DNA of 64,000 nt, taken from the sequence record OZ035742.1; one strand, written 5' to 3'. Both the position numbers and the translations under genes were made by a program. The stretch is from Felixounavirus AN17P8. Of this stretch, positions 1,981 through 58,206 are shown one piece after another (position 1 is the stretch's first letter; each line of letters begins with the position of its first letter). The notes under the pieces are model-generated. The model did no database searches. It had not been told where the DNA came from and saw only the letters and a list, made by a program, of their open reading frames with translations.

Positions 1981-2880
1981 CTACTTACCTACTGACAAAG
2001 GTGCTTCAATCTTTCCTGCATGTTGGTAATTGTAAATGCCACCAATAAAATCACTTGCAGTGAGATGTTTTAAGTCACTTAAAGTGTTAAGTGGGATACC
2101 AATCTCAAAAGTTGGTGCATGGAACTCTTCATTGTTCATCAGTTCATAAACCTGCTTCATATGATTCTGATAAATCTGAGTATCTCCAAAGACACCTATC
2201 AAGTACCGTGGAGTGTATCCAGTCATCTTACAAAGAACTTCCAGAATAAAACCATAAGATGCAATATTAAACGGGAGTCCTAAAAAGGTGTCTACTGAAC
2301 GCTGATACCATTGTAAGTCAACTTCACCCTCGTTAGTGATATAAATCTGAAACAGAACATGACAAGGTGCTAAAGCCATCGAGTTGGATGCAATATCTGC
2401 TGCATTCCAAGCATTAACAAGCATGTAGCGGTCTGTAATATCACCCTTCATCTTCGTTACTAAGGTCTCTAACTGGTCTACAACACAACCATTATGACCT
2501 TCAAAGTTTCTCCACTGAACCCCGTAGATTCTCCCACCTGCGTCATCTAACCAGTCTTGTTCAGAAGAATAATTAGAGCTTAACCAGCGTTTAAAATCAT
2601 CTGACCAGATAGTCCAGCGTTCTCCATCATTTTCATCCCAAGTGCGGTAACGGAGTTCACCCAGTTTATTCTCACCATTCAGGAACCATAAAGCTTCCCC
2701 AATAACTTGCCGTGTAAACACCTGTTTAGATGTTAAGAGCGGGAAACCAGTTCGCATATCAAAACGAAACTGAGGTGGAGCAAAAGCAGAGATAACATCT
2801 CCAGTTCGTGTAGTACGTAGTTCACCAACGGATAAAACATGGTTCAGTATATTTTTGTAACTCGAATCTGCTTGTGACAT
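1981..2880 (-). CDS. thyA: thymidylate synthase
   Basis: ThyA motifs: active-site LAPCHVLFQIYI, RTGDVISAFAPPQFRFDM, YQRSVDTFLGLPFNIASY. Confidence 0.9.
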   Translation of the reverse strand: MSQADSSYKNILNHVLSVGELRTTRTGDVISAFAPPQFRFDMRTGFPLLTSKQVFTRQVIGEALWFLNGENKLGELRYRTWDENDGERWTIWSDDFKRWLSSNYSSEQDWLDDAGGRIYGVQWRNFEGHNGCVVDQLETLVTKMKGDITDRYMLVNAWNAADIASNSMALAPCHVLFQIYITNEGEVDLQWYQRSVDTFLGLPFNIASYGFILEVLCKMTGYTPRYLIGVFGDTQIYQNHMKQVYELMNNEEFHAPTFEIGIPLNTLSDLKHLTASDFIGGIYNYQHAGKIEAPLSVGK

Positions 2881-2881
2881 A

Positions 2882-3427
2882 TCAAAAGTGTCCTTTTACT
2901 TGTGGAACATAAATTTCAAAAGTTGCTTTACCATCCTCTGATGGTTTTGACTGTACCTTTGTAAATACACGGTTATCATACAGCTTCTCAAAGAAGTTTT
3001 CAAAAGGTAAATGCACAGTGACCTCTTCAGTAACTTTATGGAAAACAGTATGGAACACTACATCAGCATACGGTAAAGCATCGACAAGGACACCTGCGCC
3101 ACCAATTACAAAGACATCTTCATCAATAGAGCTATCAAGATACTTCAAAAATGCTCCAAATGACTCTTTACTGGCTTTAGCATACATTACATCATCTTTG
3201 CCAAAGTCTATGCCTAAGTATGGTACAGAATTTGTTAAGACGAGGTTTGCACGTTCTGGTAAAGGCTTACACCCCAGAGTCTTGAAAGTCTCATTCCCCA
3301 TCACTACTAAGTTATTTTTAGTTAGTCTCTTAAACTCTTGCATATCCTGTTTGTGTCGAGGCCACGGCATACCAGTTGGAGTACCAAACTCCCCATTTTC
3401 ACCACTTGCAAAGATTAACTTAATCAT
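2882..3427 (-). CDS. frd: dihydrofolate reductase
   Basis: DHFR pattern LIFA..G..MPW....D...FKRLT..N.VVMG..TFKTLG.PLP.R.NLVLT and VIGGAGVL; abuts thyA. Confidence 0.85.
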   Translation of the reverse strand: MIKLIFASGENGEFGTPTGMPWPRHKQDMQEFKRLTKNNLVVMGNETFKTLGCKPLPERANLVLTNSVPYLGIDFGKDDVMYAKASKESFGAFLKYLDSSIDEDVFVIGGAGVLVDALPYADVVFHTVFHKVTEEVTVHLPFENFFEKLYDNRVFTKVQSKPSEDGKATFEIYVPQVKGHF

Positions 3428-3684
3428 TTTGTAAATCCTTTCTTAATGAACCAGTTGATAACATTCTTCACAGCTTTATTGCTATGGTAGATTAAGTGCG
3501 GTGTGGGTTGGTATGAACCATAAGCCCAGAATGATAGCTGCTCACCACAACCAACACATGTCGTACTCTCTTCAGATATATGACCATTAACAATCATATG
3601 AACTTCACCTTGTAAATCTGTACACCCACAATGTGGACATCGGATAGGTGTTCCATCAGACTCATAGCAGTGTTCAATTTTCAT
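3424..3684 (-). CDS. small zinc-ribbon protein
   Basis: CPHCGC...CVGCG paired CxxC motifs. Confidence 0.4.
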   Translation of the reverse strand: MKIEHCYESDGTPIRCPHCGCTDLQGEVHMIVNGHISEESTTCVGCGEQLSFWAYGSYQPTPHLIYHSNKAVKNVINWFIKKGFTK

Positions 3685-4200
3685 TTACTTAACCTCAAAA
3701 ACTGGCTCAAGAACCAATATAAAGTCTACACAGTCATCTTCTTCATCCAGAATACCATCAAAGTTCTTAGGAACGAAGTCGAAGAGGCTCATAACAAAAC
3801 AGTCAGAAGTGACCCTGATAGTTCCTCCCATGTTCTCTACAGTTAACACTGTACGACTTTCTTTTACCTCCCTCAGAAGATTACTCACAAAGTCATCTAA
3901 GAAGTACTTCATTAGTGACTTGAAACCTTTAGGGTAATTTGTACCAGAGTATGTTTCAATCTGAGGCACAAGCTTAACATTTATACTAGTCTTTGTTAAG
4001 AATGTGCTAGAGAACATGCTATCAGGTAACTTACAAACAGTCTTTTCAGTACCTTCATGTTCAATCTCAACAAAACCAGCTTCGTCGCCACATGTGACTA
4101 TTTTAAAAGATGCTTCATTCTCATGCTGCGAAGCCATAAACTTTTTAAGCATCACTTTAAGGAAATCTGCATGAGCATCTTGTAAGTAGATATCAATCAT
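3685..4200 (-). CDS. hypothetical protein
   Basis: 171-aa ORF packed in operon; no recognised motif. Confidence 0.4.
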   Translation of the reverse strand: MIDIYLQDAHADFLKVMLKKFMASQHENEASFKIVTCGDEAGFVEIEHEGTEKTVCKLPDSMFSSTFLTKTSINVKLVPQIETYSGTNYPKGFKSLMKYFLDDFVSNLLREVKESRTVLTVENMGGTIRVTSDCFVMSLFDFVPKNFDGILDEEDDCVDFILVLEPVFEVK

Positions 4201-4213
4201 AGTTAATCACCTA

Positions 4214-4573
4214 TTATGGGAACAGACACTTGATGTCATCGTTTTTAAAAACAAAACTTGTGTAGTTATAACCGTCAACATCCAGCCAAACAGCCTGAAC
4301 ATCTACACCATCAAGATTCTGGTAAAGCTCTTTGATGAAGTGGTCTTTTACAATCTGACTGCTAGTTGTTTCCAGCTTAATGTTCGAGATTGCTGAACCT
4401 ACAGCCATATAACCCATGACACGTTTCTTTTCAGTATGCTTAATCTTACCATCTTTGTAAGACATAATGAGATTGGAAAGAATCTTTACACCATAATACT
4501 TTTCAAGGTGAGTAGGTACACCATAAAAGCCTAATGCGAAGTTTTCAGAGTGGATAATGTTTTCACGTTTCAT
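4214..4573 (-). CDS. hypothetical protein
   Basis: 119-aa ORF in operon. Confidence 0.4.
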   Translation of the reverse strand: MKRENIIHSENFALGFYGVPTHLEKYYGVKILSNLIMSYKDGKIKHTEKKRVMGYMAVGSAISNIKLETTSSQIVKDHFIKELYQNLDGVDVQAVWLDVDGYNYTSFVFKNDDIKCLFP

Positions 4574-4574
4574 A

Positions 4575-4904
4575 TTAGTCTGCCAACCTTAAATTGAAAT
4601 TAACACCAAATTTTTCACATACTTCCAACATATACTCAAGGGAGACATTACCAGTGAGGTGGATTATGTTGGATACACGAGCCTGAGAGATACCACAAAT
4701 TTTAGCAACTTGCTCTTGAGAAAGACCTCTGGATTTAATCTCTCTCTTAAAACGATGTGCAACGAAGTCTCTCATTTCGTCTACATCCATTGGACAAATA
4801 TAACTCTCCATTTCAGCCTCTCTATCAGCCTCCCAATCATCTTGTGGAGCATAAGGGTCAAAAACTTCATTCATCTTTCTTCTTCCGTTTGCGTGAAGTG
4901 TCAA
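4575..4904 (-). CDS. HTH DNA-binding protein
   Basis: C-terminal helix-turn-helix-like LSQEQVAKICGISQARVSNI. Confidence 0.45.
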   Translation of the reverse strand: MTLHANGRRKMNEVFDPYAPQDDWEADREAEMESYICPMDVDEMRDFVAHRFKREIKSRGLSQEQVAKICGISQARVSNIIHLTGNVSLEYMLEVCEKFGVNFNLRLAD

Positions 4905-5079
4905 TTAATGAATCTATGTTTGTAGCCCTAACCTTTTCACGTTCATCGTTAAGATAATCATCAAGAGCCTTTTCAATCTGTGAATCATCTTGACAGATAA
5001 CTGTAAAGACTGTAAAGCCGTCTGTATCGTCAATTATCTTACCATAACCGCTTCTGGGATGTAACTTTTTAAGAGCCAT
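4867..5079 (-). CDS. hypothetical small protein
   Basis: 70-aa ORF with basic C-terminus; overlaps neighbour by 38 nt. Confidence 0.3.
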   Translation of the reverse strand: MALKKLHPRSGYGKIIDDTDGFTVFTVICQDDSQIEKALDDYLNDEREKVRATNIDSLIDTSRKRKKKDE

Positions 5080-15180: not shown

Positions 15181-15381
15181 ATGAAGATGAGAGTAAAAGA
15201 TAATTTTAAAGTTATTGACCACCGTTTAGTGGAACTCTCATCTCTTTCCAATGAGGTAATGATTGAACGTCTTAAGAGAGTTGAATCACGAAGGAAAGAG
15301 ATTGCAGATGAAATTCATGAACTGGACAAGATTGAAAATGGATTGAAGGCAGAACTACAACGAAGAGGTGCTAATGTCTAA
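15181..15381 (+). CDS. hypothetical small protein
   Basis: 66-aa coiled-coil-like ORF. Confidence 0.3.
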   Translation: MKMRVKDNFKVIDHRLVELSSLSNEVMIERLKRVESRRKEIADEIHELDKIENGLKAELQRRGANV

Positions 15382-17359
15382 AGGTCGTAAATTGAAAGAG
15401 GCTGGTCAGTTTATTGGTCATTGTGCATGTCCACGTTGTGGTTCATCAGATGCTGGTTCAATCTATCATCATGACGATGATTCTTATTCGATGACTTGCT
15501 TTAGTTGTAACAAAGGTTTCCCAGAGTGGGATTTTGATAAAGGACAAATCGTGAGCACTTATTCTACTGGTTCAGACAATAAAAACCGTACTTTCCGTGG
15601 AATGGATTTAGACGATGTAAAAGAAAACCTAGAAGCAATGGACTTGAAAGACAGGAAGATTCCTGCAAAAGTCCTTGAACGCTTAGGTATAAAGGTTGAC
15701 ATTGACAGTGATGGTGAAATTGATGCGCATTTCTATCCAACTTACAAACGTAATGAAGATGGCAAGCTAGAGCACGTTGGTTACCGTGTACGTCATCGTT
15801 ACCCAGAAGACCATCCAAAAGAACACCTACGAGGTAAGCTAAAAGACTTTTCAGGTGGTGTTGGAGACATTAAAGGTGAACTGGCAATGTTCGGTTCATG
15901 GATTGCTCCAGAAGGTGGTAACCGTCTATTCATCTGGGAAGGTGAGATGGAATGTGCAACAGCAATCTATATGACTTCTCTTGCGATTAAGGACAAGTCT
16001 CGTCGTAAGAATTACTGTCACGTATCTGTTCCATCAGGTGCAAACATTAAGTCTATCAAAGACAACTATCAGTACATTACATCATTTGATGAAATTTACT
16101 TGTGCTTTGATAATGATGAAGCTGGTGCTAAAGCTACTAAAGAGGCTGCTGGTATCCTCCCTATCGAGAAGGTTCGTTTATTCCAGTATCCAGAAGGTGT
16201 AAAAGACCTTAACGAATGGTGGACAAAGTTCTATAAAGAGAAAGATACAGTTCTGGAAGGATTTAAGCAGCGTATCTACAATGCACCTCGTTACTGTCCT
16301 GCTGGTATCAAGAACTTCGCAGATGGTTTTGAGGCAATGAAGAATCGTGGTCAGATTCCATTGATTCCTTTCCCAGAATCTTTCGGAGATTTGAACAGAC
16401 TGACTTATGGTGGTTATGGTCTAGGTGAGATTACAACTCTGGCAGCACCATCTTCAGTGGGTAAATCAGCATACACTCGTGAAATGATTTACACAGCTTG
16501 GAAAGATACCGATTACAATATTGGTGTAATTCCTGTAGAAGATACCTATGAAGAGTTGATGGAGATGCTCTGTGCAATCCACCTAAGCAAGCAGATTTCT
16601 GAGATTCCTTATGACGAACGTGATTGGGATGAATTGAAGGAAGCACACGCAGAACTATCTAAAGGTCGTCGTATCCACATCGTAGACCATCAAGGGGCAA
16701 TTGACCAAGATAACTTGCTGGAGTTTGTTGACTATCTTGTTAATAGTTTAGACTGTAAGATTATTATTCTTGACCCTATTACGTTGGCTCTGTCACGTTC
16801 AGATACGGATGAAGAGGAAGTTTTGTCTGAGCTATTGCGTCGTTGCAAACGCTACCAGTATGCACAGGTAAACGTCTGTCACGTTCGTAAAAGTGCAGGT
16901 GGTCAGAAGGCTAACTCCGAAGGTGGAGATATCTCTGAAGAGGATATTAAAGGTTCTGGTGCGTATTTCCAGATTTCTATGAACAACATCCTGTTAATGC
17001 GTAACAAAGTTGACCCAGACCCTGTTAAGAAAAACTTGACAAAAATCAAGCTAACTAAATGTCGTCGTCACGGTAAGTCAACGGGTATTGCTGGTCATAC
17101 TTGGTACAATCCAGATACAGGACGCCTCATCAAAGCATCTGGTTGCGGAGTTGACATTGATGGTGCAGCAGAAAATATTCGCCAACAGTTTGGTATTGGT
17201 GAAGCTGAAGACCATTACGATGACTCTTTGCCACATTATGAGGATGAAGTGTTTGACCGTGAGACTGGTGAAGTCTATACTGAAGAGCAGCGCCAAAGCT
17301 CAACGATTCCACCTGTATTAAGTGAGGATGCAGATGACTGCCCATTCGAAACTGAGTGA
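15374..17359 (+). CDS. bifunctional primase-helicase (T7 gp4-like)
   Basis: Zinc ribbon CPRCG...CFSCN; TOPRIM EGEMEC...DNDEAG; helicase Walker A APSSVGKS and Walker B IIILDP. Start moved from GTG 15368 to ATG 15374. Confidence 0.8.
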   Translation: MSKGRKLKEAGQFIGHCACPRCGSSDAGSIYHHDDDSYSMTCFSCNKGFPEWDFDKGQIVSTYSTGSDNKNRTFRGMDLDDVKENLEAMDLKDRKIPAKVLERLGIKVDIDSDGEIDAHFYPTYKRNEDGKLEHVGYRVRHRYPEDHPKEHLRGKLKDFSGGVGDIKGELAMFGSWIAPEGGNRLFIWEGEMECATAIYMTSLAIKDKSRRKNYCHVSVPSGANIKSIKDNYQYITSFDEIYLCFDNDEAGAKATKEAAGILPIEKVRLFQYPEGVKDLNEWWTKFYKEKDTVLEGFKQRIYNAPRYCPAGIKNFADGFEAMKNRGQIPLIPFPESFGDLNRLTYGGYGLGEITTLAAPSSVGKSAYTREMIYTAWKDTDYNIGVIPVEDTYEELMEMLCAIHLSKQISEIPYDERDWDELKEAHAELSKGRRIHIVDHQGAIDQDNLLEFVDYLVNSLDCKIIILDPITLALSRSDTDEEEVLSELLRRCKRYQYAQVNVCHVRKSAGGQKANSEGGDISEEDIKGSGAYFQISMNNILLMRNKVDPDPVKKNLTKIKLTKCRRHGKSTGIAGHTWYNPDTGRLIKASGCGVDIDGAAENIRQQFGIGEAEDHYDDSLPHYEDEVFDRETGEVYTEEQRQSSTIPPVLSEDADDCPFETE

Positions 17360-18753: not shown

Positions 18754-19794
18754 ATGGAGAAGTACACATTAACAAAACTTCCCGATTCAGTTACACATGT
18801 TTTTATTGACTCTGACAGCATTGCCTATAAAGGTGCTTGTGTAGTTGAGAAAGCAAAATATAAATATGTCAATAAACTCACAGCAGAAGAATCTGATTCG
18901 TTTGATAATGCAAAAGATGCTGCAAGATGGTTAGCAGACCAGAGAATCCTTGTGGAAGAGCTTGGTCTGACATTTGATGAAGATGAATGGGAAAGACAGA
19001 CTTGGAAAGAAGCTAAGAGTGAAAAAGAAGCTATCATGGCTACTCAACAGGTGCTTCAGGAATGGCTTAAGGTTGTTGGTAAAGAAAGAACTTGGGTAGG
19101 TTATTTAACAGAGAAAGGTGTGCATAAACATAAAGACGTTAAAGGTCTTGAGCACCAATATCAAGGCAACCGTAAAGATGCTGTCACACCAACACACCTA
19201 GTTGCTTGTCGTGAGTATCTTCTGTCAAGACCAGAGTTCAAACTCTTAAAGGGTGGCTTCGAAGCTGATTCAATCGTAATTGCTAAAGCTGAAAAGATGG
19301 GTAAGAAAGCCGCTCTTATGAGTATTGACAAAGACCTTCGACAAGCTGAAGGGACTTATTGTATTGATATGACTTATGAAAAATCACCACTAATTTTTAT
19401 TGCTGACAATAATGTTGGTGATATCTGGGATTGTCCTATCAAATCAAAACCAAAAGCTGCAAAAACAGTTGGTGTAGGTTTTAAATTCTTGTGTTATCAG
19501 GCTGTTGCTGGAGATAATGCAGACAACTACTTCGGCCTTAAGGGTGCTGGTAAAGTAGCTGTGATGAATGCTTTAGATGGTAAAGAGACCTATAAAGAGT
19601 GTCTTGACGCTATCTATGAACTCTATGCTAAAAAAGACTCTTATACCTATGTGTCATGGGATGGACAGACTGTTACAAAGACACCGTTAGAGTTAATGGA
19701 ACAGCATTTCTGGATAGCATATCAAGAGAGAAATCCAAAAGATAATTTCTCTTTCAAGAAATATAATTGGGAGCCGTGTATGAATGAAGATTAA
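18754..19794 (+). CDS. 5'-3' exonuclease / flap endonuclease
   Basis: N-terminal VFIDSDSIAYKGA and H3TH-like AGDNADNYFGLKGAGKVAVMNAL. Confidence 0.6.
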   Translation: MEKYTLTKLPDSVTHVFIDSDSIAYKGACVVEKAKYKYVNKLTAEESDSFDNAKDAARWLADQRILVEELGLTFDEDEWERQTWKEAKSEKEAIMATQQVLQEWLKVVGKERTWVGYLTEKGVHKHKDVKGLEHQYQGNRKDAVTPTHLVACREYLLSRPEFKLLKGGFEADSIVIAKAEKMGKKAALMSIDKDLRQAEGTYCIDMTYEKSPLIFIADNNVGDIWDCPIKSKPKAAKTVGVGFKFLCYQAVAGDNADNYFGLKGAGKVAVMNALDGKETYKECLDAIYELYAKKDSYTYVSWDGQTVTKTPLELMEQHFWIAYQERNPKDNFSFKKYNWEPCMNED

Positions 19795-35196: not shown

Positions 35197-37563
35197 ATGC
35201 GCATGGTAAACGACCACGCAGAAGTGATTAAGAGTTCAACTTCTTTGGAGACATCTCAAGCACAGATTACAATGACACCTGAAATGTTTAGCCTTCTGAG
35301 TTCTGGTGTATACACGTTTAAAGAGCGAGCAGTGATTCGTGAACTGTCATGTAACGCAGTAGATGCTCAGAAAGAAGCTGGAAAAGAAAACATCCCATTC
35401 CATGTGCATTTACCTACTCGATTTGAGCCTTACTTTGAAGTCCGTGACTTTGGAACTGGTTTAACCCACGACAAAGTAATGAGTTTGTATCTGAACTACG
35501 GGGCTTCTACGAAGAATGACTCTAATGATTACATTGGTGCAATGGGTATCGGCTCAAAATCCCCATTTGCAATTGCTCAGTCATTCACAGTATCTAGCTA
35601 TGTTGATGGTGTTGTTAATAAGTACTCTGTTTACCTTGAGAATGGTATCCCTCAAGTGACTAAGCTTACTACTAACCCAACAAATGAACCTAATGGCTTA
35701 GCTGTACGTGTGGCAGTTGCTGACCACCGTATTTCAAAGTTCTTTGAAGAGGCTGGTCACGTATATTCATACTTTGCTGTAAAACCAGAAAGTAACATTG
35801 TATATGATGACGTGTTAGCAGATATGAACGTCATTGCTCGTGAAGAAGGTGTTTATGACGCTATGATTCATAAGCAAAGCTGGCGTTCTAGTGGTAACAG
35901 GACAGAGTTTAATGTGGTGATGGGTAATATTGCCTATCCAGTGAACATGGAAGCATTACTTGGTGATGATTTCTTCAAAGTCTTGCCAGAGTTTTTCCGT
36001 AGGAGCGTAGACCTTGTAAACATCTACATGCCTATTGGTTCAGTTGCTATAGCAGCTTCTCGTGAAGCATTGCAGATGAATGATACGACAAAAAATGTTA
36101 TCATTGAGGCAACTAAAAAGATAACTGAAGCAATTACAAAGGATGTTATCAAGAAAGTTAATAGTCAACCTACACTCATGGATGCTGCACAGGCTTATGC
36201 TGAGTTACGTTTGAACTCACGAGAAATGTTTAATGCTGTGTGTCCAAAGCTAGAGTGGGGAGGTGTTAAGCTTGATTCTCTGGAAGAAGAATTGCTAAAC
36301 ATTCGTCGTGGGATTATCTACGCAGAAGACGGCTCAGTCATTTATGAACGTGACGGTAAAGGCAATATTAAGGTTGATAGGAACGGAAACAACATCCCTA
36401 AAGTAGATTATCTTTATAACCCAGTTGCTTATGTCAAGTTCAACTCTTTAGAGAGTAAGGTTCGTGCAACAGCACTTTCCTACACTCAAGAGGCAAGTAT
36501 GTTCAATATCTTTGGTGCAATGCGTAAGAGCCAAATTGAACAGTTTTTGTTCGTGATTAATGACCGCCGCAATAAAAACGGTACTGAGAAGACTGTAGGC
36601 CGCAATCAGATTCTGCGTGGTGCATGTCGAGACTATGCCAGTGAGTCAAGTCTGTTTCACAGATACAATGGTATTGTGTTTGTATTCTCGACTGAAAAAG
36701 AGTTAGATGATTTAATCAATCTACACAAACTTGATAAAAGCTTGTTAAAGATTGTGAAAATGTCTGATAAGGAACACCATTACCAGCGCAAAGAAGCTGT
36801 AAGAGGTGTTGTAAAACTCTGGAAAGCAGTTCCAGCAGAATCTGTAGCTTCATACACAGAGGTGTCAGAAGACTTAGACACAATTGAAGAGCCTCAGCTT
36901 TACATTAAGGCAGTAGGTGACACAGTTGATGGCAAATGCTTTTGCTCATCTCCAGAAGATGTAGCTAAGTCAGTTGCTAATGTTATAGGGAAGACAGTCT
37001 ATGTTTTCCGAAAAGCAAATTGGAAAAAGATACCAGAAGACTGGATTGAAGTAGATGAGAAGCTCTTGAACGACAGCTTAACTGATGTTCACTGGATTAA
37101 TCATAACAGGTATATGACACGCATCTACATGAATGGTGTTCTTGACCTTACAAGCAGTTGGATTATTGCCAGAAACTTTACATTCAATAACAGGAAGATT
37201 TCTCGTGGTTATTGCTACTCACGAGATACTAGCAAAACTATCTTCCTAGAAGGTAACGAAGAGGCTGTAGAGGCAATTTTCGGTAAAATCCAGTATGTTG
37301 CTGCACCGTTTGCATACACTTACACTATTAGTGTGTTGAAGACTTTGAAAGAATGTCTTGACAATGATACAAAGCTTTACAAGAAAATTAAGAAAGCTGG
37401 CGACCGCATGGTTATTAAGTTGGCAAACTACCTTTCAAAAAGAAAACAAGAAAACTTCTTGCTTTCCCATTTAGATTGGAATAAAGTGTCACCTATTGAA
37501 GTGAGTAAGTTTTTGGGCTTTAATGTGAAATGTGTTCCAGAAGGTACAACAGTTTACGATTAA
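35197..37563 (+). CDS. rIIA-like protein with N-terminal GHKL ATPase fold
   Basis: GHKL boxes ELSCNAVDA, VRDFGTGL, GAMGIGSKSPF; ~790 aa; followed by an rIIB-sized gene. Confidence 0.55.
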   Translation: MRMVNDHAEVIKSSTSLETSQAQITMTPEMFSLLSSGVYTFKERAVIRELSCNAVDAQKEAGKENIPFHVHLPTRFEPYFEVRDFGTGLTHDKVMSLYLNYGASTKNDSNDYIGAMGIGSKSPFAIAQSFTVSSYVDGVVNKYSVYLENGIPQVTKLTTNPTNEPNGLAVRVAVADHRISKFFEEAGHVYSYFAVKPESNIVYDDVLADMNVIAREEGVYDAMIHKQSWRSSGNRTEFNVVMGNIAYPVNMEALLGDDFFKVLPEFFRRSVDLVNIYMPIGSVAIAASREALQMNDTTKNVIIEATKKITEAITKDVIKKVNSQPTLMDAAQAYAELRLNSREMFNAVCPKLEWGGVKLDSLEEELLNIRRGIIYAEDGSVIYERDGKGNIKVDRNGNNIPKVDYLYNPVAYVKFNSLESKVRATALSYTQEASMFNIFGAMRKSQIEQFLFVINDRRNKNGTEKTVGRNQILRGACRDYASESSLFHRYNGIVFVFSTEKELDDLINLHKLDKSLLKIVKMSDKEHHYQRKEAVRGVVKLWKAVPAESVASYTEVSEDLDTIEEPQLYIKAVGDTVDGKCFCSSPEDVAKSVANVIGKTVYVFRKANWKKIPEDWIEVDEKLLNDSLTDVHWINHNRYMTRIYMNGVLDLTSSWIIARNFTFNNRKISRGYCYSRDTSKTIFLEGNEEAVEAIFGKIQYVAAPFAYTYTISVLKTLKECLDNDTKLYKKIKKAGDRMVIKLANYLSKRKQENFLLSHLDWNKVSPIEVSKFLGFNVKCVPEGTTVYD

Positions 37564-37567
37564 GTGC

Positions 37568-37597
37568 TTGACAAGGGGCTTCAAAGCCCCTTAGAAT
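37568..37597 (+). promoter_or_regulatory. sigma70-like promoter for rIIB-like gene, hairpin in spacer
   Basis: gcTTGACAagGGGCTTCAAAGCCCCtTAGAAT; spacer holds a perfect GGGGCTT/AAGCCCC stem. Confidence 0.5.
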
Positions 37598-37641
37598 AGC
37601 CTCACAAAATGAGTTATTAACTAACAAGAGAGAGTAATAAG

Positions 37642-38751
37642 ATGACTACTAAAACTAAAGCACAGATTGACGCAGAAATTTACAAACTGGTTAAAGAGGG
37701 TAAGCTGACTAAAACAGCTATTGCACAGAAATTTAACACCTCAACACGTTCAGTTGGTCGTGCTGTAGAGCGTCATGAAGCAACCTTAAAAGGTAAGAAA
37801 AAGGTAGCTTCTAAACCAGCTACGAAGACTTTGAAGCAAGTTGCTAAATCAGTTAAAAAGAAAGCTGGAAAACCAGTTGAAAATGTTGTTAAAGAGACTG
37901 TACAAAAGGCTCCGGTAAATAAACTACACGAAGCTATGCAGAATGGTAACCAGATTGAGTATATGATTACTGGCGATTCTATTATCATGACTTTTGGTGC
38001 AGATTCTGAAATCGTTGAATCTACCCATCCGAACTACAAAGAAATCGTAATGGCTGTTGTATCCGGTGAGTATAAGAAAGCTTTCGAACTGATGAACATT
38101 CGTAAGTCTATCGAAAACTTCACTCAGGGTGCTATCACCATCAAAGGTGACAAGTTATTCTATGGTGCTGTTGAGATGCGTTCTACTCTGGTTGACCGTA
38201 TTCTTCACATGATGAAGACTGGAGATAAGGGTTTTGAACGCCTTGTGATGTTCTTCGAAAAACTGATGGAAAACCCATCTAAAGATTCTGTAGAACAACT
38301 TTGGGGATTCGTATCTCACCTTGATGTTGAAATTGATGAAGAAGGCTACATCATTGGTTGGAAGAAAGTCTCTACTCGTGAAGGCAAGCTGGTTGACTCC
38401 CACACCTACAGAGTTCCTAATGATTTGGGTAACATTGTAGAAATGCCACGTTGGATGGTTGATAATAACCGTAACGTGACTTGCTCTCAAGGTCTTCACG
38501 TTGGTGCTTGGGATTACGTTCGTTGCTTCTCAGGCGACACAATCCTGAAGGTTCGTGTCCATCCACGAGACGTTGTATCCGTACCAACTGATTACAACGA
38601 TATGAAGATGCGCTCGTCTCGTTATGAAGTTGCAGCAATCGTTGATAATCAACGTAAAGTGCTGAAAGCATGGGATGGCAAGACTGAAGCTTTACATGTC
38701 ATCGTCGGTACTGCTGGAGAACTTATCTCCCAACGTAAACGTGAAATCTAA
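37642..38751 (+). CDS. rIIB-like protein
   Basis: Position after rIIA-like gene; N-terminal HTH-like LTKTAIAQKFNTSTRSVGRAV; own promoter. Confidence 0.45.
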   Translation: MTTKTKAQIDAEIYKLVKEGKLTKTAIAQKFNTSTRSVGRAVERHEATLKGKKKVASKPATKTLKQVAKSVKKKAGKPVENVVKETVQKAPVNKLHEAMQNGNQIEYMITGDSIIMTFGADSEIVESTHPNYKEIVMAVVSGEYKKAFELMNIRKSIENFTQGAITIKGDKLFYGAVEMRSTLVDRILHMMKTGDKGFERLVMFFEKLMENPSKDSVEQLWGFVSHLDVEIDEEGYIIGWKKVSTREGKLVDSHTYRVPNDLGNIVEMPRWMVDNNRNVTCSQGLHVGAWDYVRCFSGDTILKVRVHPRDVVSVPTDYNDMKMRSSRYEVAAIVDNQRKVLKAWDGKTEALHVIVGTAGELISQRKREI

Positions 38752-52824: not shown

Positions 52825-52852
52825 GAAAATAAAAAAGGCTCCCGAAGGAGCC
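52825..52852 (-). terminator. rho-independent terminator (minus strand) after endolysin
   Basis: Minus-strand reading: GGCTCC-ttcg-GGAGCC-TTTTTTATTTT. Confidence 0.6.
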
Positions 52853-52862
52853 TATGAAGATA

Positions 52863-53327
52863 TTACTTTGGATATACACTGTCAAGATAAATGTCAGCTT
52901 CCATTCTACGTCTATTTTTCAAGCCGTTTGAAGTTACCTTCTTACCTTTGACTGTAATCTTGTTCCACCACTGCATAGCTTCTGCACAACCTACCTTATT
53001 ACCAGCATTGTGGCGCTTGATAAATGTAGAGTCCTGCATAGCTGTGATACCGATGTTATATGTTTCACTTACAAGTGCATCAAACTCGTTCTGAGAAGTT
53101 GGAACCTTGATGGATTTGTTCACTGCTGCAACGAACTTTTCAACATCTGCGAGAAGATACTGTTCAGCTTGTTCAGCGGTAATCTTCATACCCATCTTAA
53201 CAGGCTTACCAGCAATACGGATAGTCCCATACCCAATTGTGGGGATTCCAGCAGAATCTTCGTAAGCCTCTAACTTAAGACCTTCAAAGAACTTAATAGC
53301 TTCTAAACCTTTCTGTGAGAGTTGCAT
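52863..53327 (-). CDS. endolysin, T4-type lysozyme (GH24-like)
   Basis: LEAIKFFEGLKLEAYEDSAGIPTIGYGT aligns with T4 lysozyme catalytic region (Glu, Asp, Thr triad). Confidence 0.85.
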   Translation of the reverse strand: MQLSQKGLEAIKFFEGLKLEAYEDSAGIPTIGYGTIRIAGKPVKMGMKITAEQAEQYLLADVEKFVAAVNKSIKVPTSQNEFDALVSETYNIGITAMQDSTFIKRHNAGNKVGCAEAMQWWNKITVKGKKVTSNGLKNRRRMEADIYLDSVYPK

Positions 53328-54712
53328 TATGCCTCCCCTGCTGGGTTAACTGTAACTGTTGCCGCATTAGATGTTACAGAGCCACCTGCGCCAGTCACTA
53401 CACAAGTGTAGCTTCCCGCATCAGCAGTGGTTGCACCTTCTTTGGTGTAAGTTGCAGTAGTTGCATCGAGGATGTCTTCCTCACCTTTCTTCCACTGGTA
53501 ACCTGTCGCACCTGTTGCCACAACATTCAGCGTTAATGTTTCACCTTCACTGATTTCTTGATTGGTTGGCTGTTGAGTGATTACCGGAAGTGCATTCACA
53601 GTAACTGTTGCTGCATTAGATGTGACTGTTGTGCCACCTGCACCAGTAACTACACAGGTGTATGAACCAGCATCGGCAGGAGCTACACTAGCTTTCGTGT
53701 AAGTCGCACCAGTTGCACTAGGGATGTTCACATTGTCCTTTTTCCATTGGTAACCTTCTGCGCCTGTAGCCTCAACACTCAGTGTCAAAGAGTTCCCCTC
53801 ATTAACTACCTGATTGGTTGGCTGCTTGGTAATAACTGGTAAAGCATTTACCGTGACAGTTGCAGGGCTAGAAGTAACAGAACCACCTGCACCTGTTACG
53901 ACGCAAGTGTATGAACCTGCATCTGCTGGCAGAGCGCCAGACTTGCTATAGATAGCCTCTGTAGCCGAAGGAATGTCAGAGCCATCTTTCTTCCACTGGT
54001 AACCCGTTGCACCCGTTGCAGTCACTTCCAAGCTGATGTTTCCACCCTCATTGATGGTCTGGCTAGAAGGTTGCTGTGTAATCACAGGTAGTGCATTAAC
54101 AGTAACTGTTGCCGCATCTGAGGTAACGCTTGTCCCAGCCTCTCCAGATACAACACAAGTGTATGAACCAGCATCAGAAGGGGCTACAGACTGTTTTGTG
54201 TAGGTTGCAGATGTGGCGCTAGTGATATCCTCACCATCTTTTTTCCATTGATATCCAGTGGCATTAGTTGCAATAACGCTTAGGTTAAGTGTACCACCTT
54301 CATTTACTGTTTGATTGGTTGGTTGCTGAGTGATTGATGGTGGCTTGATAGCGTCCTTCAACTTAGCATTCAACATTGAGAATGGTTTAACTCTTGCCAG
54401 CCACTCACAATAAACTGTATCAACGTCTTTACCATTGATAATTGCATATTGTAAGTCCATGAAGAAGTCAGAAGTTCTCATTTGAGCACCAACGCTGTAA
54501 AGCAACTCATCACTAAATGGGACTTTGTAGTCCGGTTTGTAGTCAAACTTCTCAACTTCTGCAATATCAGCTTCAGGCCAATACGAACTATAGGTGAGTG
54601 GTAAAATAGCCTCTTGATATGTTCTAAAATCATATCTCTTACCAGCCTTTACATTTGCAATGAAGCCCTTCACAAACTCTTTGAAGTCTGGGTAAGTCTT
54701 TGCTTTAATCAT
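53327..54712 (-). CDS. protein with N-terminal domain plus four tandem Ig-like repeats
   Basis: Four ~83-aa repeats each with QWKKDG and DAGSYTCVVTGAGG (Ig-like Gly-x-Tyr-x-Cys); N-terminal ~125 aa paralogous to adjacent gene. Confidence 0.6.
   Translation of the reverse strand: MIKAKTYPDFKEFVKGFIANVKAGKRYDFRTYQEAILPLTYSSYWPEADIAEVEKFDYKPDYKVPFSDELLYSVGAQMRTSDFFMDLQYAIINGKDVDTVYCEWLARVKPFSMLNAKLKDAIKPPSITQQPTNQTVNEGGTLNLSVIATNATGYQWKKDGEDITSATSATYTKQSVAPSDAGSYTCVVSGEAGTSVTSDAATVTVNALPVITQQPSSQTINEGGNISLEVTATGATGYQWKKDGSDIPSATEAIYSKSGALPADAGSYTCVVTGAGGSVTSSPATVTVNALPVITKQPTNQVVNEGNSLTLSVEATGAEGYQWKKDNVNIPSATGATYTKASVAPADAGSYTCVVTGAGGTTVTSNAATVTVNALPVITQQPTNQEISEGETLTLNVVATGATGYQWKKGEEDILDATTATYTKEGATTADAGSYTCVVTGAGGSVTSNAATVTVNPAGEA
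53346..54340. repeat. four tandem ~249-bp coding repeats (Ig-like domains)
   Basis: Units start near 53346, 53594, 53843, 54094 with shared GTAACTGTTGC...CACCTGCACC strings. Confidence 0.75.
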
Positions 54713-55080
54713 TTCTTTTTAGCCTCTAAATGTGCGTTTAGTCTAAAATAACCTTTGTGATGCGGAGATACATCACCAACAACGATACCTTTAACCTTAT
54801 AACCTTTACCAATTACATACTGGATATCCATAAGGAATCTTCCAAGACCAACAATATGGAACATTGGATATAATAGATTCTCAGAGTCTGGAATATTGAT
54901 TTCAGGTTTGTAGGTGCGTTGTTCGCTTGTTGGTGTAATATCTTCTTCAGGCCATTTACTGAGTCTCCATGTCAAAGGTGTTGGGATAACATCATTAAGG
55001 TTGTACCTTTCACCATTTTGCACGGAATTGATATAGGATTGTAGGAAGCAATAAAAGTCTTTTGCACTCTTAGCTTTCAT
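54709..55080 (-). CDS. paralog of the N-terminal domain of the Ig-repeat protein
   Basis: MKAKSAKDFYCFLQSYINSVQNGERY and FLMDIQYVIGKG align with MIKAKTYPDFKEFVKGFIANVKAGKRY and FFMDLQYAIINGKD. Confidence 0.5.
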   Translation of the reverse strand: MKAKSAKDFYCFLQSYINSVQNGERYNLNDVIPTPLTWRLSKWPEEDITPTSEQRTYKPEINIPDSENLLYPMFHIVGLGRFLMDIQYVIGKGYKVKGIVVGDVSPHHKGYFRLNAHLEAKKK

Positions 55081-55127
55081 TAAATATCCTTATAAGTAGT
55101 TAAAGGGGCATTAGCCCCTATTCACAC

Positions 55128-56337: not shown

Positions 56338-56709
56338 ATGAAAAACAGAACAAACAAAGGCCAGTTTAAAAAAGGCCAGTCTGGAAACCCATCTGGAAGA
56401 CCAAAAGGCTCTCGTAACAAAAGCTCACTTGTAAAAGCTCAACTGACCATTGATAATTCTGCTGAGTTTGCTGCAAAGTTGTTTGAAGCGATTGTTACAA
56501 GGGACGCTGCTAAGCTTGCAGAGTTCGGGTTAAACACAGACGACGTAACCATCAAGAGCATGATTGAGGTCGGTAAAACTATCATGACTCACTCAGCGGG
56601 TGAGATGAAAGCAATTGCAGCAGACACTAAGAAGACCCCTGATAACGGTGGTCAGTCTCAGACAGATAACAAACCAACGTTCTCTGCTGTTGCAACCCTC
56701 AAAAAATAA
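56338..56709 (+). CDS. protein with GNPSGRPKG motif
   Basis: N-terminal KKGQSGNPSGRPKGSRNK motif of a recurrent phage protein family; function unknown. Confidence 0.45.
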   Translation: MKNRTNKGQFKKGQSGNPSGRPKGSRNKSSLVKAQLTIDNSAEFAAKLFEAIVTRDAAKLAEFGLNTDDVTIKSMIEVGKTIMTHSAGEMKAIAADTKKTPDNGGQSQTDNKPTFSAVATLKK

Positions 56710-56790: not shown

Positions 56791-58206
56791 ATGAGCGAGT
56801 TATTTAAACATGCGCACCTTCATGCAGGTCGAACTGAAAATGGTGCTGTAAACCATACTTCATCAATGTCTGCTCTGGTAGACTTTTACAAAGCCGCTGG
56901 CTCAAGCCGTAGCAATGTAGAAATCTTACCAGACCTGTTCTACAAAGCTTTGCATGAGGATGTTGATGTTGCAGTTCGTATTTTGCTTCATATGCGAGAT
57001 GTACGAGAAGGTATGGGTGAGCGTAAAGCCTTCAGAACTGTTTTGCTTCAAGCAATTGAAGACAAAGTTTTAGAGTCTACGCAGGTTCTTCGCATTATGG
57101 ATAAGATTGCAGAACTTGGTCGTTTTGATGACTTCAAAATCTTCGTAGGTACTCGTTTCGAGACAGATGCCTTCAAACATTTAGAAGCAGCATTACTAGA
57201 CCCTGCAACAGCAGGTTTGGCGGCTAAGTGGTTACCACGAGTCAAACCACGTCATAAGCAGTTTGTAAAACGTTTCTGCAAGTTTGCCAACTTGAGTGAG
57301 AAAGAGTACCGCACACTGTTGTCTGCACTATCTGATACAGTTGAGCAAAAAATCTCTGCTAATGAGTTTGGTAAGATTGACTACAGCAAGATTCCTTCAC
57401 TTGCTGCTGCACGTTACCAAAAACTGTTTAACCGTAAAGATGGAGAACGCTACAAAGCTTACATCGAGTCCTTATCAAAGGGTGAGACTAAGATTAATGC
57501 TGGTGCTGTTTACCCATACGATGTGATTAAATCTGTTAAGTATGGTAATGCAGATGTTGCCAATGAGCAGTGGAAAGCACTACCAAACTGGATGGCAGAA
57601 GGTGAAAACATCTTGTGTATGACTGATGTTTCAAGCTCAATGTCTTGGGTGAATCTTGGCTCAATCACCGCCCTTGATATTGGTGTATCGCTTGCCTTGT
57701 ATGTAGCAGAACGCAATACAGGCTGCTTTAAGAATGAGTTAATGGTTTATTCAACAAACCCTCACTTCATTGAACTGAGTGGTGATTTACGAAACCGTCA
57801 TCGTCAGGTGATGCGACACGTTGAATATGGTTCAACTAACTTACAAGCAGCTTTCGACCGCATTCTTGAGACAGGTAAAAGAAACAACTTGACTCAGAAA
57901 GATATGCCAAGTAAGCTTATCATATTCTCTGATATGGAGTTCAATCAGGTTGATGGAGCTAACGGTCGTACAAACTTTGAAGCAATTCAGAGCAAGTACA
58001 AAAAAGCTGGATATGAGATGCCACAACTGGTATTCTGGTACTTAGCAAACCGTAATGGTACTTGCGAAGTGTCCGTTAAGGATAACGGTGTAGCAATGGT
58101 ATCTGGTTTCTCTCCAGCCACTTTAAAAGCTCTGCTTGGTGGTGAGAAGTTTGACCCAATCAGCGTAATGCTCAAAGCAGTAATGATTGACCGTTATATC
58201 TGGTAA
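56791..58206 (+). CDS. vWA-domain protein (MIDAS motif)
   Basis: C-terminal half has DxSxS (TDVSSSM), conserved Thr and acidic residues spaced as in vWA folds; ~220-aa alpha-rich N-terminal domain. Confidence 0.5.
   Translation: MSELFKHAHLHAGRTENGAVNHTSSMSALVDFYKAAGSSRSNVEILPDLFYKALHEDVDVAVRILLHMRDVREGMGERKAFRTVLLQAIEDKVLESTQVLRIMDKIAELGRFDDFKIFVGTRFETDAFKHLEAALLDPATAGLAAKWLPRVKPRHKQFVKRFCKFANLSEKEYRTLLSALSDTVEQKISANEFGKIDYSKIPSLAAARYQKLFNRKDGERYKAYIESLSKGETKINAGAVYPYDVIKSVKYGNADVANEQWKALPNWMAEGENILCMTDVSSSMSWVNLGSITALDIGVSLALYVAERNTGCFKNELMVYSTNPHFIELSGDLRNRHRQVMRHVEYGSTNLQAAFDRILETGKRNNLTQKDMPSKLIIFSDMEFNQVDGANGRTNFEAIQSKYKKAGYEMPQLVFWYLANRNGTCEVSVKDNGVAMVSGFSPATLKALLGGEKFDPISVMLKAVMIDRYIW

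Follow-up and report, generated by a model that had tools for sequence, protein, structure and literature searches.

A very probable hexamer decoration protein with four Ig-like domains, and a conserved stand-alone paralog of its capsid-binding domain, beside the endolysin gene of a Felixounavirus

Background

It is known from two cryo-EM papers published in 2025 that homologs of the 461-aa protein described here are set on the capsid; they are Hex-Dec in Bas63 (Escherichia phage JohannRWettstein) and gp20 in Shigella phage Sf14. In both phages, a capsid-binding domain (CapBD) of about 120 aa sits as a monomer at the centres of those 60 hexamers of a T=9 head that adjoin pentamers, the Ig domains point outward from the head, and the other 20 hexamers are reported to be free of density (PMC12609058, PMC11821841). 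Salt bridges from Arg79 and Arg107 to capsid-protein Asp221 (the Asp ring) anchor Sf14 gp20, and its authors put the site selectivity of the protein down to a displacement of Asp221 in the three-fold hexamers (PMC11821841). Mass spectrometry has detected both Sf14 gp20 (PMC11821841) and the homologous gp36 of Felix O1 (14 peptides, 44 % coverage; PMC3185647) in virions. The Bas63 gene is far from the structural module, Ig copy-number variation from one to four has been published, and four Ig domains were found only in Bas63 among 18 ICTV species (PMC12609058). When Bas63 genes were screened by knockout, gp124, the protein with the Ig domains, was dispensable on most hosts but scored as more essential on S17-1 than elsewhere among the strains tested (PMC11482910).

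T4 Hoc is alike in being a hexamer-centre monomer from which a string of Ig-like domains projects as a dispensable acidic fibre of variable Ig number, but its capsid-binding domain is C-terminal, whereas that of the protein described here is N-terminal. We know of no stand-alone copy of the anchor in T4. According to the Bas63 authors, the Hoc anchor is topologically distinct and has minimal sequence similarity (PMC12609058).

Organization of the locus

The window analysed comprises 64,000 nt of a Felixounavirus (Felix O1-like myophage); it matched 250 phage records, every one of them Felix O1-like, the best at 97 %. The features of the locus are the following:

52836..52853, minus strand: strong intrinsic terminator, AGGCTCC-TTCG-GGAGCCT followed by TTTTTTATTTT
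52863..53327, minus strand: endolysin of T4-lysozyme type, 154 aa (PF00959, E 1.5e-40)
53327-54712, minus strand: open reading frame of the very probable Hex-Dec, 461 aa (stop codon 53327-53329)
53330..53587, minus strand: Ig-like repeat R4 and a short C-terminal tail, aa 376-461 (86 aa; Pfam, AF2)
53588..53839, minus strand: Ig-like repeat R3, aa 292-375 (84 aa; repeat alignment, 83/84-aa indel)
53840..54088, minus strand: Ig-like repeat R2, aa 209-291 (83 aa; Pfam, AF2, Foldseek)
54089..54340, minus strand: Ig-like repeat R1, aa 125-208 (84 aa; Pfam, AF2, Foldseek)
54344..54712, minus strand: CapBD, residues 1-123 (by homology to 9ncf_S)
54709-55080, minus strand: stand-alone CapBD paralog, 123 aa, pI 9.1 (PHROG 4463, unknown function)
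55087-55091: ribosome-binding site of the paralog, AAGGA
55104..55119, minus strand: hairpin AGGGGC-TAAT-GCCCCT with a short T-poor tail (read from the letters)

An ATGA overlap joins the paralog gene to the Hex-Dec gene, and the endolysin gene follows immediately downstream, its ATG sharing one base with the Hex-Dec stop codon (TAATG). The strong terminator at 52836..52853 ends this unit. The hairpin at 55104..55119 lies between an upstream 196-aa gene and the paralog and was not called in a simple terminator scan. It is weak, of a terminator-like or processing type, and marks the 5' boundary. The homologous sites of both are annotated in wV8 and Mordin as terminators (rho-independent at the hairpin site), and the same order of paralog, decoration protein and endolysin genes with annotated terminators recurs in wV8 and in the Mooglevirus relatives Sf17 and Mordin. 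Hairpin, paralog, Hex-Dec, endolysin and strong terminator would make up one compact unit; because of this compactness and of the overlapping start and stop codons, Hex-Dec is most likely co-transcribed with the endolysin and expressed late, a timing that we infer from the gene arrangement. No promoter was identified for the unit, and a literature search for Felixounavirus transcriptomes bearing on early versus late timing gave nothing relevant.

A previous sequence-only reading had reported both open reading frames, which we recovered at the same positions on the minus strand, and had located the larger gene beside the endolysin in a non-structural block. This location, far from morphogenesis genes, was borne out: the conserved genomic slot of Hex-Dec is directly upstream of the endolysin and away from the morphogenesis module. 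The same reading had assigned the gene to an early region, which finds no support in its packing against the endolysin and in a product that is very probably a virion protein. Replication genes, rIIA/rIIB and tRNAs are present in the window, a head or tail module is not, and the capsid protein gene lies outside it. Large plus-strand ORFs at 15-39 kb were considered as a structural module and rejected, since PHROGs identify them as primase/helicase, exonuclease and rIIA/rIIB.

Identity of the 461-aa protein

Searched with phmmer against the PDB, the 461-aa protein matched 9ncf_S (Bas63 capsid, 460 aa; E 5e-271) and 9c2d_S/9c3a (Sf14 capsid, 372 aa; E 1e-165). Its identity to Bas63 Hex-Dec (PDB 9NCF chain S) is about 91 %, and in the CapBD (residues 1-123) 121 of the 123 residues are the same as in that solved chain. 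Arg79 and Arg107 are both present and are invariant among 12 homologs; their partner in Sf14, Asp221, belongs to the capsid protein, whose gene lies outside the window. We hold it very probable that this is the Ounavirinae hexamer decoration protein (Bas63 Hex-Dec, Sf14 gp20), a functional analogue of T4 Hoc, and nothing that we found contradicts this identification. Near-identity to the solved chains suggests that it occupies the centres of pentamer-adjacent hexamers.

The Bas63 protein belongs to the same family, with a CapBD and four I-set Ig domains, shares both arginines and is likewise encoded outside the structural module; it is a different allele, of 460 instead of 461 aa, and most of the differences fall in repeat R3. 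Sf14 gp20, the virion-borne monomer of pentamer-adjacent hexamer centres, has a homologous CapBD and Ig array (9C2D/9C3A chain S), but it carries three Ig domains in 372 aa and comes from a Mooglevirus, not a Felixounavirus. With respect to T4 Hoc, the PHROG matches labelled 'Hoc-like' cover only the Ig part (aa 289-459), and the relationship is one of functional analogy, not of family membership.

Two other identities have to be weighed. The sequence-only reading saw a non-structural, early protein in which an N-terminal ligand or glycan module is presented on an Ig stalk, the neighbouring gene encoding the same module without the stalk. The location among small minus-strand genes of unknown type and far from morphogenesis genes, the replication genes, rIIA/rIIB and tRNAs of a window with no head or tail module, and a CapBD paralogy that is real all speak for it. 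However, the N-terminal domain is the same, at 121 of 123 positions, as one whose solved structure touches the centre of a capsid hexamer, homologs occur in purified virions, and the gene adjoins the endolysin and shares its terminator; for the homologs, cryo-EM has already refuted this idea, which we regard as hardly credible here. What was found instead is the case that the reading itself had named as its refutation, very probably an ordinary capsid decoration protein with an odd gene order, its 9NCF and 9C2D homologs being on capsids. The orientation proposed for the binding module is reversed: what the N-terminal domain binds, as an anchor, is the phage's own capsid hexamer, and it is the Ig array that is displayed, so that 'with and without a stalk' holds only as a capsid anchor with and without Ig cargo. 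The second alternative is the database annotation, by which the 461-aa protein, and the 123-aa protein by similarity, would be tail proteins. Such an annotation ('tail protein' or 'putative tail protein') is indeed carried by most GenBank records, PHROG 3995 has the label 'tail protein', and the paralog goes by the name 'Tail protein' in UniRef. Yet Hex-Dec has been recognized as mis-annotated in this way in most Felixounavirus genomes (PMC12609058), the solved chains come from icosahedral capsid reconstructions, and all the 'tail' PHROG matches except phrog_3995 cover the Ig part. We see next to no chance that a tail protein is encoded here, and the widespread annotation of Hex-Dec as such should be taken as wrong. 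The odd gene position and the variable Ig number are already explained by the two 2025 papers.

The four I-set-type Ig domains are predicted to form a flexible, acidic fibre (pI 4.2) that reaches outward and might allow weak adhesion, not essential to the phage, to surfaces of cells or of the environment; the likeness to Hoc and the Bas63 knockout screen (E. coli S17-1) are what suggest such a role. In the full-length AF2 model the CapBD was poorly predicted (pLDDT 30-59) and this part was left unused. The Sf14 authors noted the same difficulty (PMC11821841).

The Ig-like repeats

Pfam found Ig_3 (E 4e-44), Ig_2 (3.5e-34) and I-set (4.6e-33) in the 461-aa protein, each in four stretches. AF2 modelled the Ig part (aa 125-458) at pLDDT 92-97 with beta-sandwich strands, for which the best Foldseek matches were Ig1-4 of Robo2 and Robo1 (E 1.5e-27 and 5e-27), followed by sidekick and titin. 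Pfam, AF2 and Foldseek agree with the previous description of four tandem Ig-like units after an N-terminal domain; the units measure 84, 83, 84 and 86 aa. Programmed frameshifting as the source of Ig domains was rejected because the 461 codons run as a single uninterrupted open frame. In the phmmer search of the PDB, the window repeats also matched 5lxk_A and 8zvi_a ('Decoration protein', E about 1e-11), which we take to be T5 pb10. The T5 head has T=13. Pb10 differs in having one Ig domain and an unrelated anchor domain and in belonging to a siphophage. The Sf14 paper compares gp20 with pb10 (PMC11821841).

The repeats had also been described as highly similar in nucleotides, and their duplication as recent or under conversion. 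We found a codon-aligned nucleotide identity among the four repeats of only 61-72 %, below the amino-acid identity of 69-75 %, with pS of 0.60-0.88 and dS of at least 1.2 or saturated; dN/dS was 0.13-0.20 in the three pairs with an estimable dS. At sites where the repeats have the same amino acid, identical codons numbered 133, against 147 expected from random codon choice. The longest exact word common to repeats was 11-19 nt, and TRF reported only 2.3 copies at 73 % matches. Nothing points to homogenisation of the Ig repeats in nucleotides, and they are ancient: with synonymous sites fully randomised, they are neither the product of a recent duplication nor subject to conversion.

Variation in repeat number between isolates, for which a check had been suggested, does exist. 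Hex-Dec measures 210, 294, 377 and 461 aa, corresponding to one to four Ig domains, in 4, 12, 10 and 2 of 28 IMG/VR loci, respectively, and 377-378 aa in 114 of the 120 best Hex-Dec protein clusters. The window carries the rare four-Ig form, which we also found in two of the 28 IMG/VR loci and in the GenBank phages pinkbiff, DaR-2019b and DR094. Compared with the common three-Ig allele, it has one extra in-register unit of 83/84 aa, made up of the C-terminal half of R2 and the N-terminal half of R3, and the junction of this indel falls in the PADAGSYTCVVTGAGG block. Copy number varies from one to four as whole repeat-length units are gained or lost in register and, the repeats being ancient and unhomogenised, such gain and loss takes place among long-diverged repeats and is not a matter of recent duplication.

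The anchor domain in other Ounavirinae

Orthologous CapBDs were found directly upstream of the endolysin in Kolesnikvirus (Erwinia phage vB_EamM-M7 gp008, 37 % identity) and in Hafnia phage SarahDanielle (gp85, 26 % identity). As read from their sequences, M7 gp008 (206 aa) joins the CapBD to one bacterial Big_2-like Ig domain, not to an I-set domain, and SarahDanielle gp85 joins it to about two Big_2-like domains. The CapBD anchor is the constant module across Ounavirinae. The Ig class on display, by contrast, appears to be swapped, being I-set in Felixounavirus and Mooglevirus and seemingly Big_2 in Kolesnikvirus. Both the M7 and the Hafnia phage are without the stand-alone paralog, which is missing from the syntenic slot.

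Outside the Ounavirinae, neither a relative of the anchor nor a new architecture was obtained with an anchor-only profile against a set of 5.8 billion proteins (a search that relies on shared words, so that distant relatives could escape), with an IMG/VR scan (a single back-translated motif, with the same consequence) or with tblastn against 50,697 phage records. A profile search with all 460 columns of the Hex-Dec alignment returned only Ig-repeat giants (78,531 matches) and is uninformative on the anchor, since sequence weighting retained every column.

The stand-alone paralog

The adjacent 123-aa gene had been taken for a paralog of the N-terminal domain, and we reached the same conclusion. 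BLASTP aligned the two with 37 % identity over 101 aa (E 6e-17), and a phmmer search of the PDB with the paralog matched only 9ncf_S and 9c2d_S (E 1e-11). These two solved anchors were also the only significant Foldseek PDB matches of its AF2 model (TM 0.67-0.70, probability 1.0), a model of moderate confidence only (pLDDT 69.7); the paralog is predicted to keep the CapBD fold. In all paralogs examined, however, Arg79 is replaced by Gly and Arg107 by His or Gln, whereas the Hex-Dec of Kolesnikvirus M7 retains Arg and Lys at these positions. Pfam, NCBIfam and PHROGs yielded no function for the paralog, and no discussion of it was found in the literature searched.

The family consists of 51 clusters, all of 122-124 aa when complete, and is confined to Felixounavirus and Mooglevirus. 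The paralog is present at 74-100 % identity in most of 252 Ounavirinae records; in 232 of them a single place accounts for 80 % or more of the query, and in 19 there was only a weak cross-match (<60 %) to the anchor domain of Hex-Dec itself. Whatever the Ig number, the gene lies directly upstream of Hex-Dec in 27 of the 28 IMG/VR loci. Its dN/dS across genera is 0.06-0.18 (dS > 1), similar to that of the endolysin (0.05-0.09), and its ribosome-binding site and coupled stop/start are conserved; the paralog is under purifying selection. In contrast, the REP11/Z31 clade keeps only a decayed remnant, with a lost start codon, an internal deletion of about 220 nt and frameshifts. The identity of the paralog is 33-38 % to Felixounavirus and Mooglevirus CapBDs, 27-29 % to that of M7 and 19-23 % to that of the Hafnia phage. 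These data point to a tandem duplicate of the CapBD alone that was born in the lineage of Felixounavirus and Mooglevirus, diverged quickly, was later kept by purifying selection and was lost in one clade.

As for its presence in virions, the published results are negative, though for a small protein: the paralog is absent from the Felix O1 protein list (PMC3185647) and from Table 1 of the Sf14 paper (PMC11821841), and the Felix O1 and VpaE1 proteomes include the neighbourhood of the Ig protein. In VpaE1 it (ORF40c) is not among the three virion proteins reported beyond the Felix O1 list, so that its absence there follows from that list plus three additions.

Possible roles of the paralog

We tentatively propose, as something short of probable, that the paralog is a non-essential, stalk-less CapBD making weak or transient contact with capsid or procapsid hexamers and not a stable decoration. 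A protein contacting hexamers in this way could, for example, act as a competitor or a placeholder. About equally likely is a function unrelated to the capsid. The rival reading that includes such a function, with a reasonable if less than even chance, makes of the paralog either a chaperone or assembly factor of Hex-Dec or a neofunctionalised cytoplasmic protein with no tie to the capsid; it is unreported in virions, lacks the anchor arginines, has shifted in charge (pI 9.1) and diverged fast after duplication before coming under constraint. An essential chaperone is nevertheless improbable, Hex-Dec being intact without the paralog in REP11 (293 aa), M7 and the Hafnia phage, and no family, motif or partner suggests another function. 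That the gene is a decaying, functionless remnant of the duplication is very unlikely: it has indeed decayed in the REP11/Z31 clade, but most of the 252 records, and all but one of the 28 IMG/VR loci, have it at full length, its dN/dS stays low between genera at a dS above 1, and its translation signals are kept.

A stable role on the head would make the paralog a second, stalk-less decoration protein that fills the 20 three-fold hexamers or shares sites with Hex-Dec, tuning the density of Ig fibres. The predicted retention of the fold, the purifying selection and the translational coupling to Hex-Dec through ATGA fit this idea, the acidic Asp ring in the middle of the hexamer would be a suitable partner for a basic protein and, since Asp221 is shifted in the three-fold hexamers, an altered anchor could in principle fit there. 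We nonetheless judge it distinctly unlikely. Both published anchor residues are gone, neither cryo-EM study reports density on the other 20 hexamers and the virion proteins of Felix O1 and, by inference, VpaE1 do not include the paralog, all of which also weighs against the transient hexamer contact that we propose. The REP11/Z31 remnant tells against both as well; for a second decoration protein, the paralog is also absent in Kolesnikvirus, and for hexamer contact, the AF2 model is of moderate confidence.

A selected stand-alone copy of the anchor beside the Hex-Dec gene in two genera is the unstudied piece of this system, and a cheap target for groups that have the maps and mass-spectrometry data of Sf14 or Bas63. 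An unlikely version is that it is a 'blank cap', a stalk-less ligand of the hexamer centres of capsid or procapsid, co-translated with Hex-Dec. If so, it could set the number of hexamers bearing an Ig fibre or fill, weakly or transiently, the 20 three-fold hexamers closed to Hex-Dec, and head decoration would then have a layer of regulation that has no described counterpart in Hoc-type systems.

Identity and genetic context of the 461-aa protein

The two adjacent ORFs described by the sequence-only reading are present on the minus strand and belong, with an endolysin gene, to a three-gene unit:

54709-55080, minus strand: stand-alone anchor paralog, 123 aa; its stop overlaps the Hex-Dec start (ATGA)
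53327-54712, minus strand: Hex-Dec, 461 aa
52863-53327: endolysin of T4-lysozyme type, 154 aa; start codon (ATG) overlapping the Hex-Dec stop
55104-55119: weak hairpin upstream of the unit
52836-52853: strong intrinsic terminator downstream of the unit

Because stops and starts overlap, with the weak hairpin upstream and the strong terminator downstream, the paralog and Hex-Dec would be expressed jointly with the endolysin. An identical layout was found in phages wV8, Mordin and Sf17, in which terminators are annotated. The label "early region" previously given to the locus was unsupported, and a literature search for a transcriptome able to test early expression found none.

A 3-kb query from the window matched 250 phage records (best, 97 %), and on sequence similarity the window belongs to a Felixounavirus, a Felix O1-like myophage. 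In the PDB, the 461-aa protein matched chains of the Bas63 capsid (9ncf_S, 460 aa; E 5e-271) and the Sf14 capsid (9c2d_S/9c3a, 372 aa; E 1e-165). The Bas63 protein is a monomer sitting only at the centres of facet-edge hexamers, its gene is separated from the structural module by more than 10 kb, and the number of Ig domains ranges from one to four across the genus; the name Hex-Dec was given in that work (PMC12609058) and is not used in the Sf14 paper (PMC11821841). The latter presents a matching picture for gp20, which mass spectrometry finds in virions and whose Arg79 and Arg107 form salt bridges to Asp221 of three capsid-protein subunits (PMC11821841). The Felix O1 homolog, gp36, was likewise detected in purified virions, and its odd gene position was remarked (PMC3185647). 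[quoted passage not shown] On all the sequence-level features compared, the protein belongs to the Hex-Dec/gp20 family, and its location on the capsid would follow from that of its homologs.

The sequence-only reading had proposed a binding module with and without a display stalk. Its Ig repeats and its paralog proved real, but the proposal had to give way to the alternative it had itself named, an ordinary capsid decoration protein whose gene order is merely unlike expectation, because the homologs have been solved on capsids or found in virions, the CapBD is nearly identical to the solved Bas63 one and both arginines are kept. Hex-Dec is thus already known, and the small unstudied item is the stand-alone anchor gene.

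By analogy with close homologs, for which this has been shown, CapBD would plug the T=9 head's 60 pentamer-adjacent hexamers at their centres. Together the four Ig domains are predicted to make up a fibre that is flexible and acidic (pI 4.2 versus 6.3 for the anchor) and that may provide dispensable weak adhesion or environmental sensing, as with T4 Hoc. Although it works like Hoc, Hex-Dec is not a member of that family: Hoc carries its anchor at the other terminus, the Bas63 authors describe the two anchors as topologically distinct (PMC12609058), and the "Hoc-like" PHROG matches of the 461-aa protein are confined to its Ig part. A screen of gene knockouts across the Bas63 genome found that gp124, the Ig-domain protein and presumably the Hex-Dec gene product, was more essential when the host was E. 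coli S17-1 than with three other strains (PMC11482910).

The closest GenBank relative (97 %) is Escherichia phage MET-P1-301 (PV700625.1, locus 3527-4911), in which a one-base deletion at gene nt 469 (window ~54244), in an A-rich run after "YQWKK" of the first repeat (R1), splits Hex-Dec into two annotated ORFs. Either the homopolymer was misread in sequencing, or the protein is naturally cut short after the anchor and part of an Ig domain.

Age and copy number of the Ig repeats

After a ~123-aa N-terminal part, the protein contains units of 84, 83, 84 and 86 aa (R1 to R4). The earlier description of these as Ig-like was correct, since Pfam gave four Ig_3/Ig_2/I-set stretches (E 4e-44 to 5e-33), the AF2 model had a pLDDT of 92-97 over residues 125-458, and its top PDB matches were Robo2 and Robo1 Ig1-4, sidekick and titin (E down to 1.5e-27). 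The nearest solved non-phage relative is the Aureispira grappling-hook protein GhpA (PDB 9flp_A), matched in 13 stretches at E 6.5e-82. This Ig type is very widespread, since an exhaustive profile search brought up 78,531 proteins, the top ones being giants with many Ig domains, up to 7,432 aa long.

The repeats had also been taken to retain high nucleotide similarity and to be recently duplicated, or under conversion. However, their codon-aligned nucleotide identity is just 61-72 %, below the amino-acid identity (69-75 %), and the proportion of synonymous differences (0.60-0.88) corresponds to a dS of at least 1.2 or to saturation, with dN/dS of 0.13-0.20 in the three pairs with estimable dS. 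Recent duplication is thus unsupported, its nucleotide-level trace being gone. TRF gave a weak signal (2.3 copies, 73 % matches), which protein-level conservation alone would yield. Codon identity, synonymous differences and shared words disclosed no sign of gene conversion among the repeats: identical codons were used at 133 same-amino-acid positions against 147 expected under random codon choice, and the longest exact common words were 11-19 nt. Codon sharing was at expectation in R1, R3 and R4; R2 (window 53840-54088) shared 17-18 codons per pair versus ~24 expected, a slight deficit, drawn from a small sample of non-independent pairs, which could come from R2 having arisen separately or from selection against recombinogenic homology.

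Among 28 Felixounavirus/Mooglevirus loci from IMG/VR, Hex-Dec measured 210-211, 294-298, 377 or 461 aa (4, 12, 10 and 2 loci), corresponding to one, two, three and four Ig domains. In the best 120 protein clusters, 114 were of 377-378 aa and just five of 460-461 aa. Exactly one repeat unit's length separates the three- and four-Ig forms; the indel is in register and its junction falls within the conserved PADAGSYTCVVTGAGG block. Just five GenBank phages matched the window's extra unit at 94 % identity or above; among them, GE_vB_7A gave a shorter two-piece match to the 3-kb query, which suggests that it has three repeats and lost a different unit. We read this variation, already published as such, as whole-unit gain or loss among old diverged repeats.

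The anchor carries other domains in more distant phages. In Erwinia phage vB_EamM-M7 (gp008, 2441-3061) and Hafnia phage SarahDanielle (gp85, 2501-3466) it occupies, as Hex-Dec does, the slot upstream of the endolysin, and is fused to apparent Big_2-type (judged by eye) rather than I-set Ig domains. The anchor is the constant module within the subfamily, and these fusions suggest that the displayed module was swapped on it.

The stand-alone anchor paralog

The adjacent gene had rightly been called a stand-alone paralog of the N-terminal domain (37 % identity over 101 residues, E 6e-17), and its C-terminal end coincides with that of CapBD in Hex-Dec. Its AF2 model, of moderate confidence (pLDDT 69.7, pTM 0.71), significantly matched only the solved CapBDs of Bas63 and Sf14 (TM 0.67-0.70). 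It is not discussed in either cryo-EM paper, and neither contains the word "paralog" (PMC12609058, PMC11821841). The family is narrow, with 51 clusters of 122-124 aa where complete (PHROG 4463, unknown function), and in 27 of the 28 IMG/VR loci its gene immediately precedes Hex-Dec, irrespective of Ig number. Most of 252 Ounavirinae records carry it at 74-100 % identity; 19 gave only a weak cross-match to Hex-Dec's own anchor. Neither Kolesnikvirus M7 nor a Hafnia phage has the paralog in its syntenic slot, and the paralog is more similar to Felix/Moogle CapBDs (33-38 % identity) than to the CapBDs of these two outgroups (19-29 %). These results point to a tandem duplication in the Felixounavirus and Mooglevirus lineage followed by rapid divergence. 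A 99 % identical paralog, together with the Hex-Dec anchor, was found in GU169904.1 (143190-143558), labelled a 147-kb Staphylococcus phage (SA1), which probably contains a Felix O1-like contaminant or chimeric sequence.

That the paralog is a pseudogene has little probability; it is under purifying selection (dN/dS 0.06-0.18, with dS up to and above 1; CapBD, 0.02-0.09; endolysin, 0.05-0.09). Decay was seen in the REP11/Z31 clade of Felixounavirus (~19 records), where a remnant has lost the start codon and bears a ~220-nt internal deletion and frameshifts:

~2305-2498, Shigella phage Z31 and Escherichia phage REP11: decayed paralog locus

Hex-Dec, 293 aa long in REP11 and split into ORFs of 134 and 55 aa in Z31, persists there while the paralog is a remnant, which weighs against the paralog being a stable second decoration protein. 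We consider that role improbable also because every paralog has Gly in place of Arg79 and His/Gln in place of Arg107, while Arg and Lys are retained in the distant M7 ortholog; the remaining hexamers show no density in the Bas63 (PMC12609058) and Sf14 (PMC11821841) structures; and the protein is missing from the virion list of Felix O1 (PMC3185647) and, by inference, from that of VpaE1. Its basic pI (9.1) would suit an acidic hexamer pore, yet other partners would fit it equally well. A function away from the capsid has not far short of an even chance, and a weak or transient hexamer ligand, acting as competitor or placeholder, is nearly as likely. The stand-alone gene would make a small, cheap follow-up for groups with existing maps and spectra.

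Other features of the window

No head or tail module was found anywhere in the 64-kb window among the assigned large plus-strand ORFs, and therefore Hex-Dec appears to be its sole virion protein gene.

15368-17359, 18754-19794 and 35197-38751, plus strand: large ORFs, primase/helicase, exonuclease and rIIA/rIIB homologs
56338-56709: 123-aa ORF before the tRNA array; homolog annotated DUF5681
56791-58206: 471-aa ORF preceding the tRNA array; wV8 homolog annotated "RNA-binding protein"
58373-63585, plus strand: tRNA array, 26 genes

The adjoining of the tRNA array and an RNA-binding protein gene may deserve attention.
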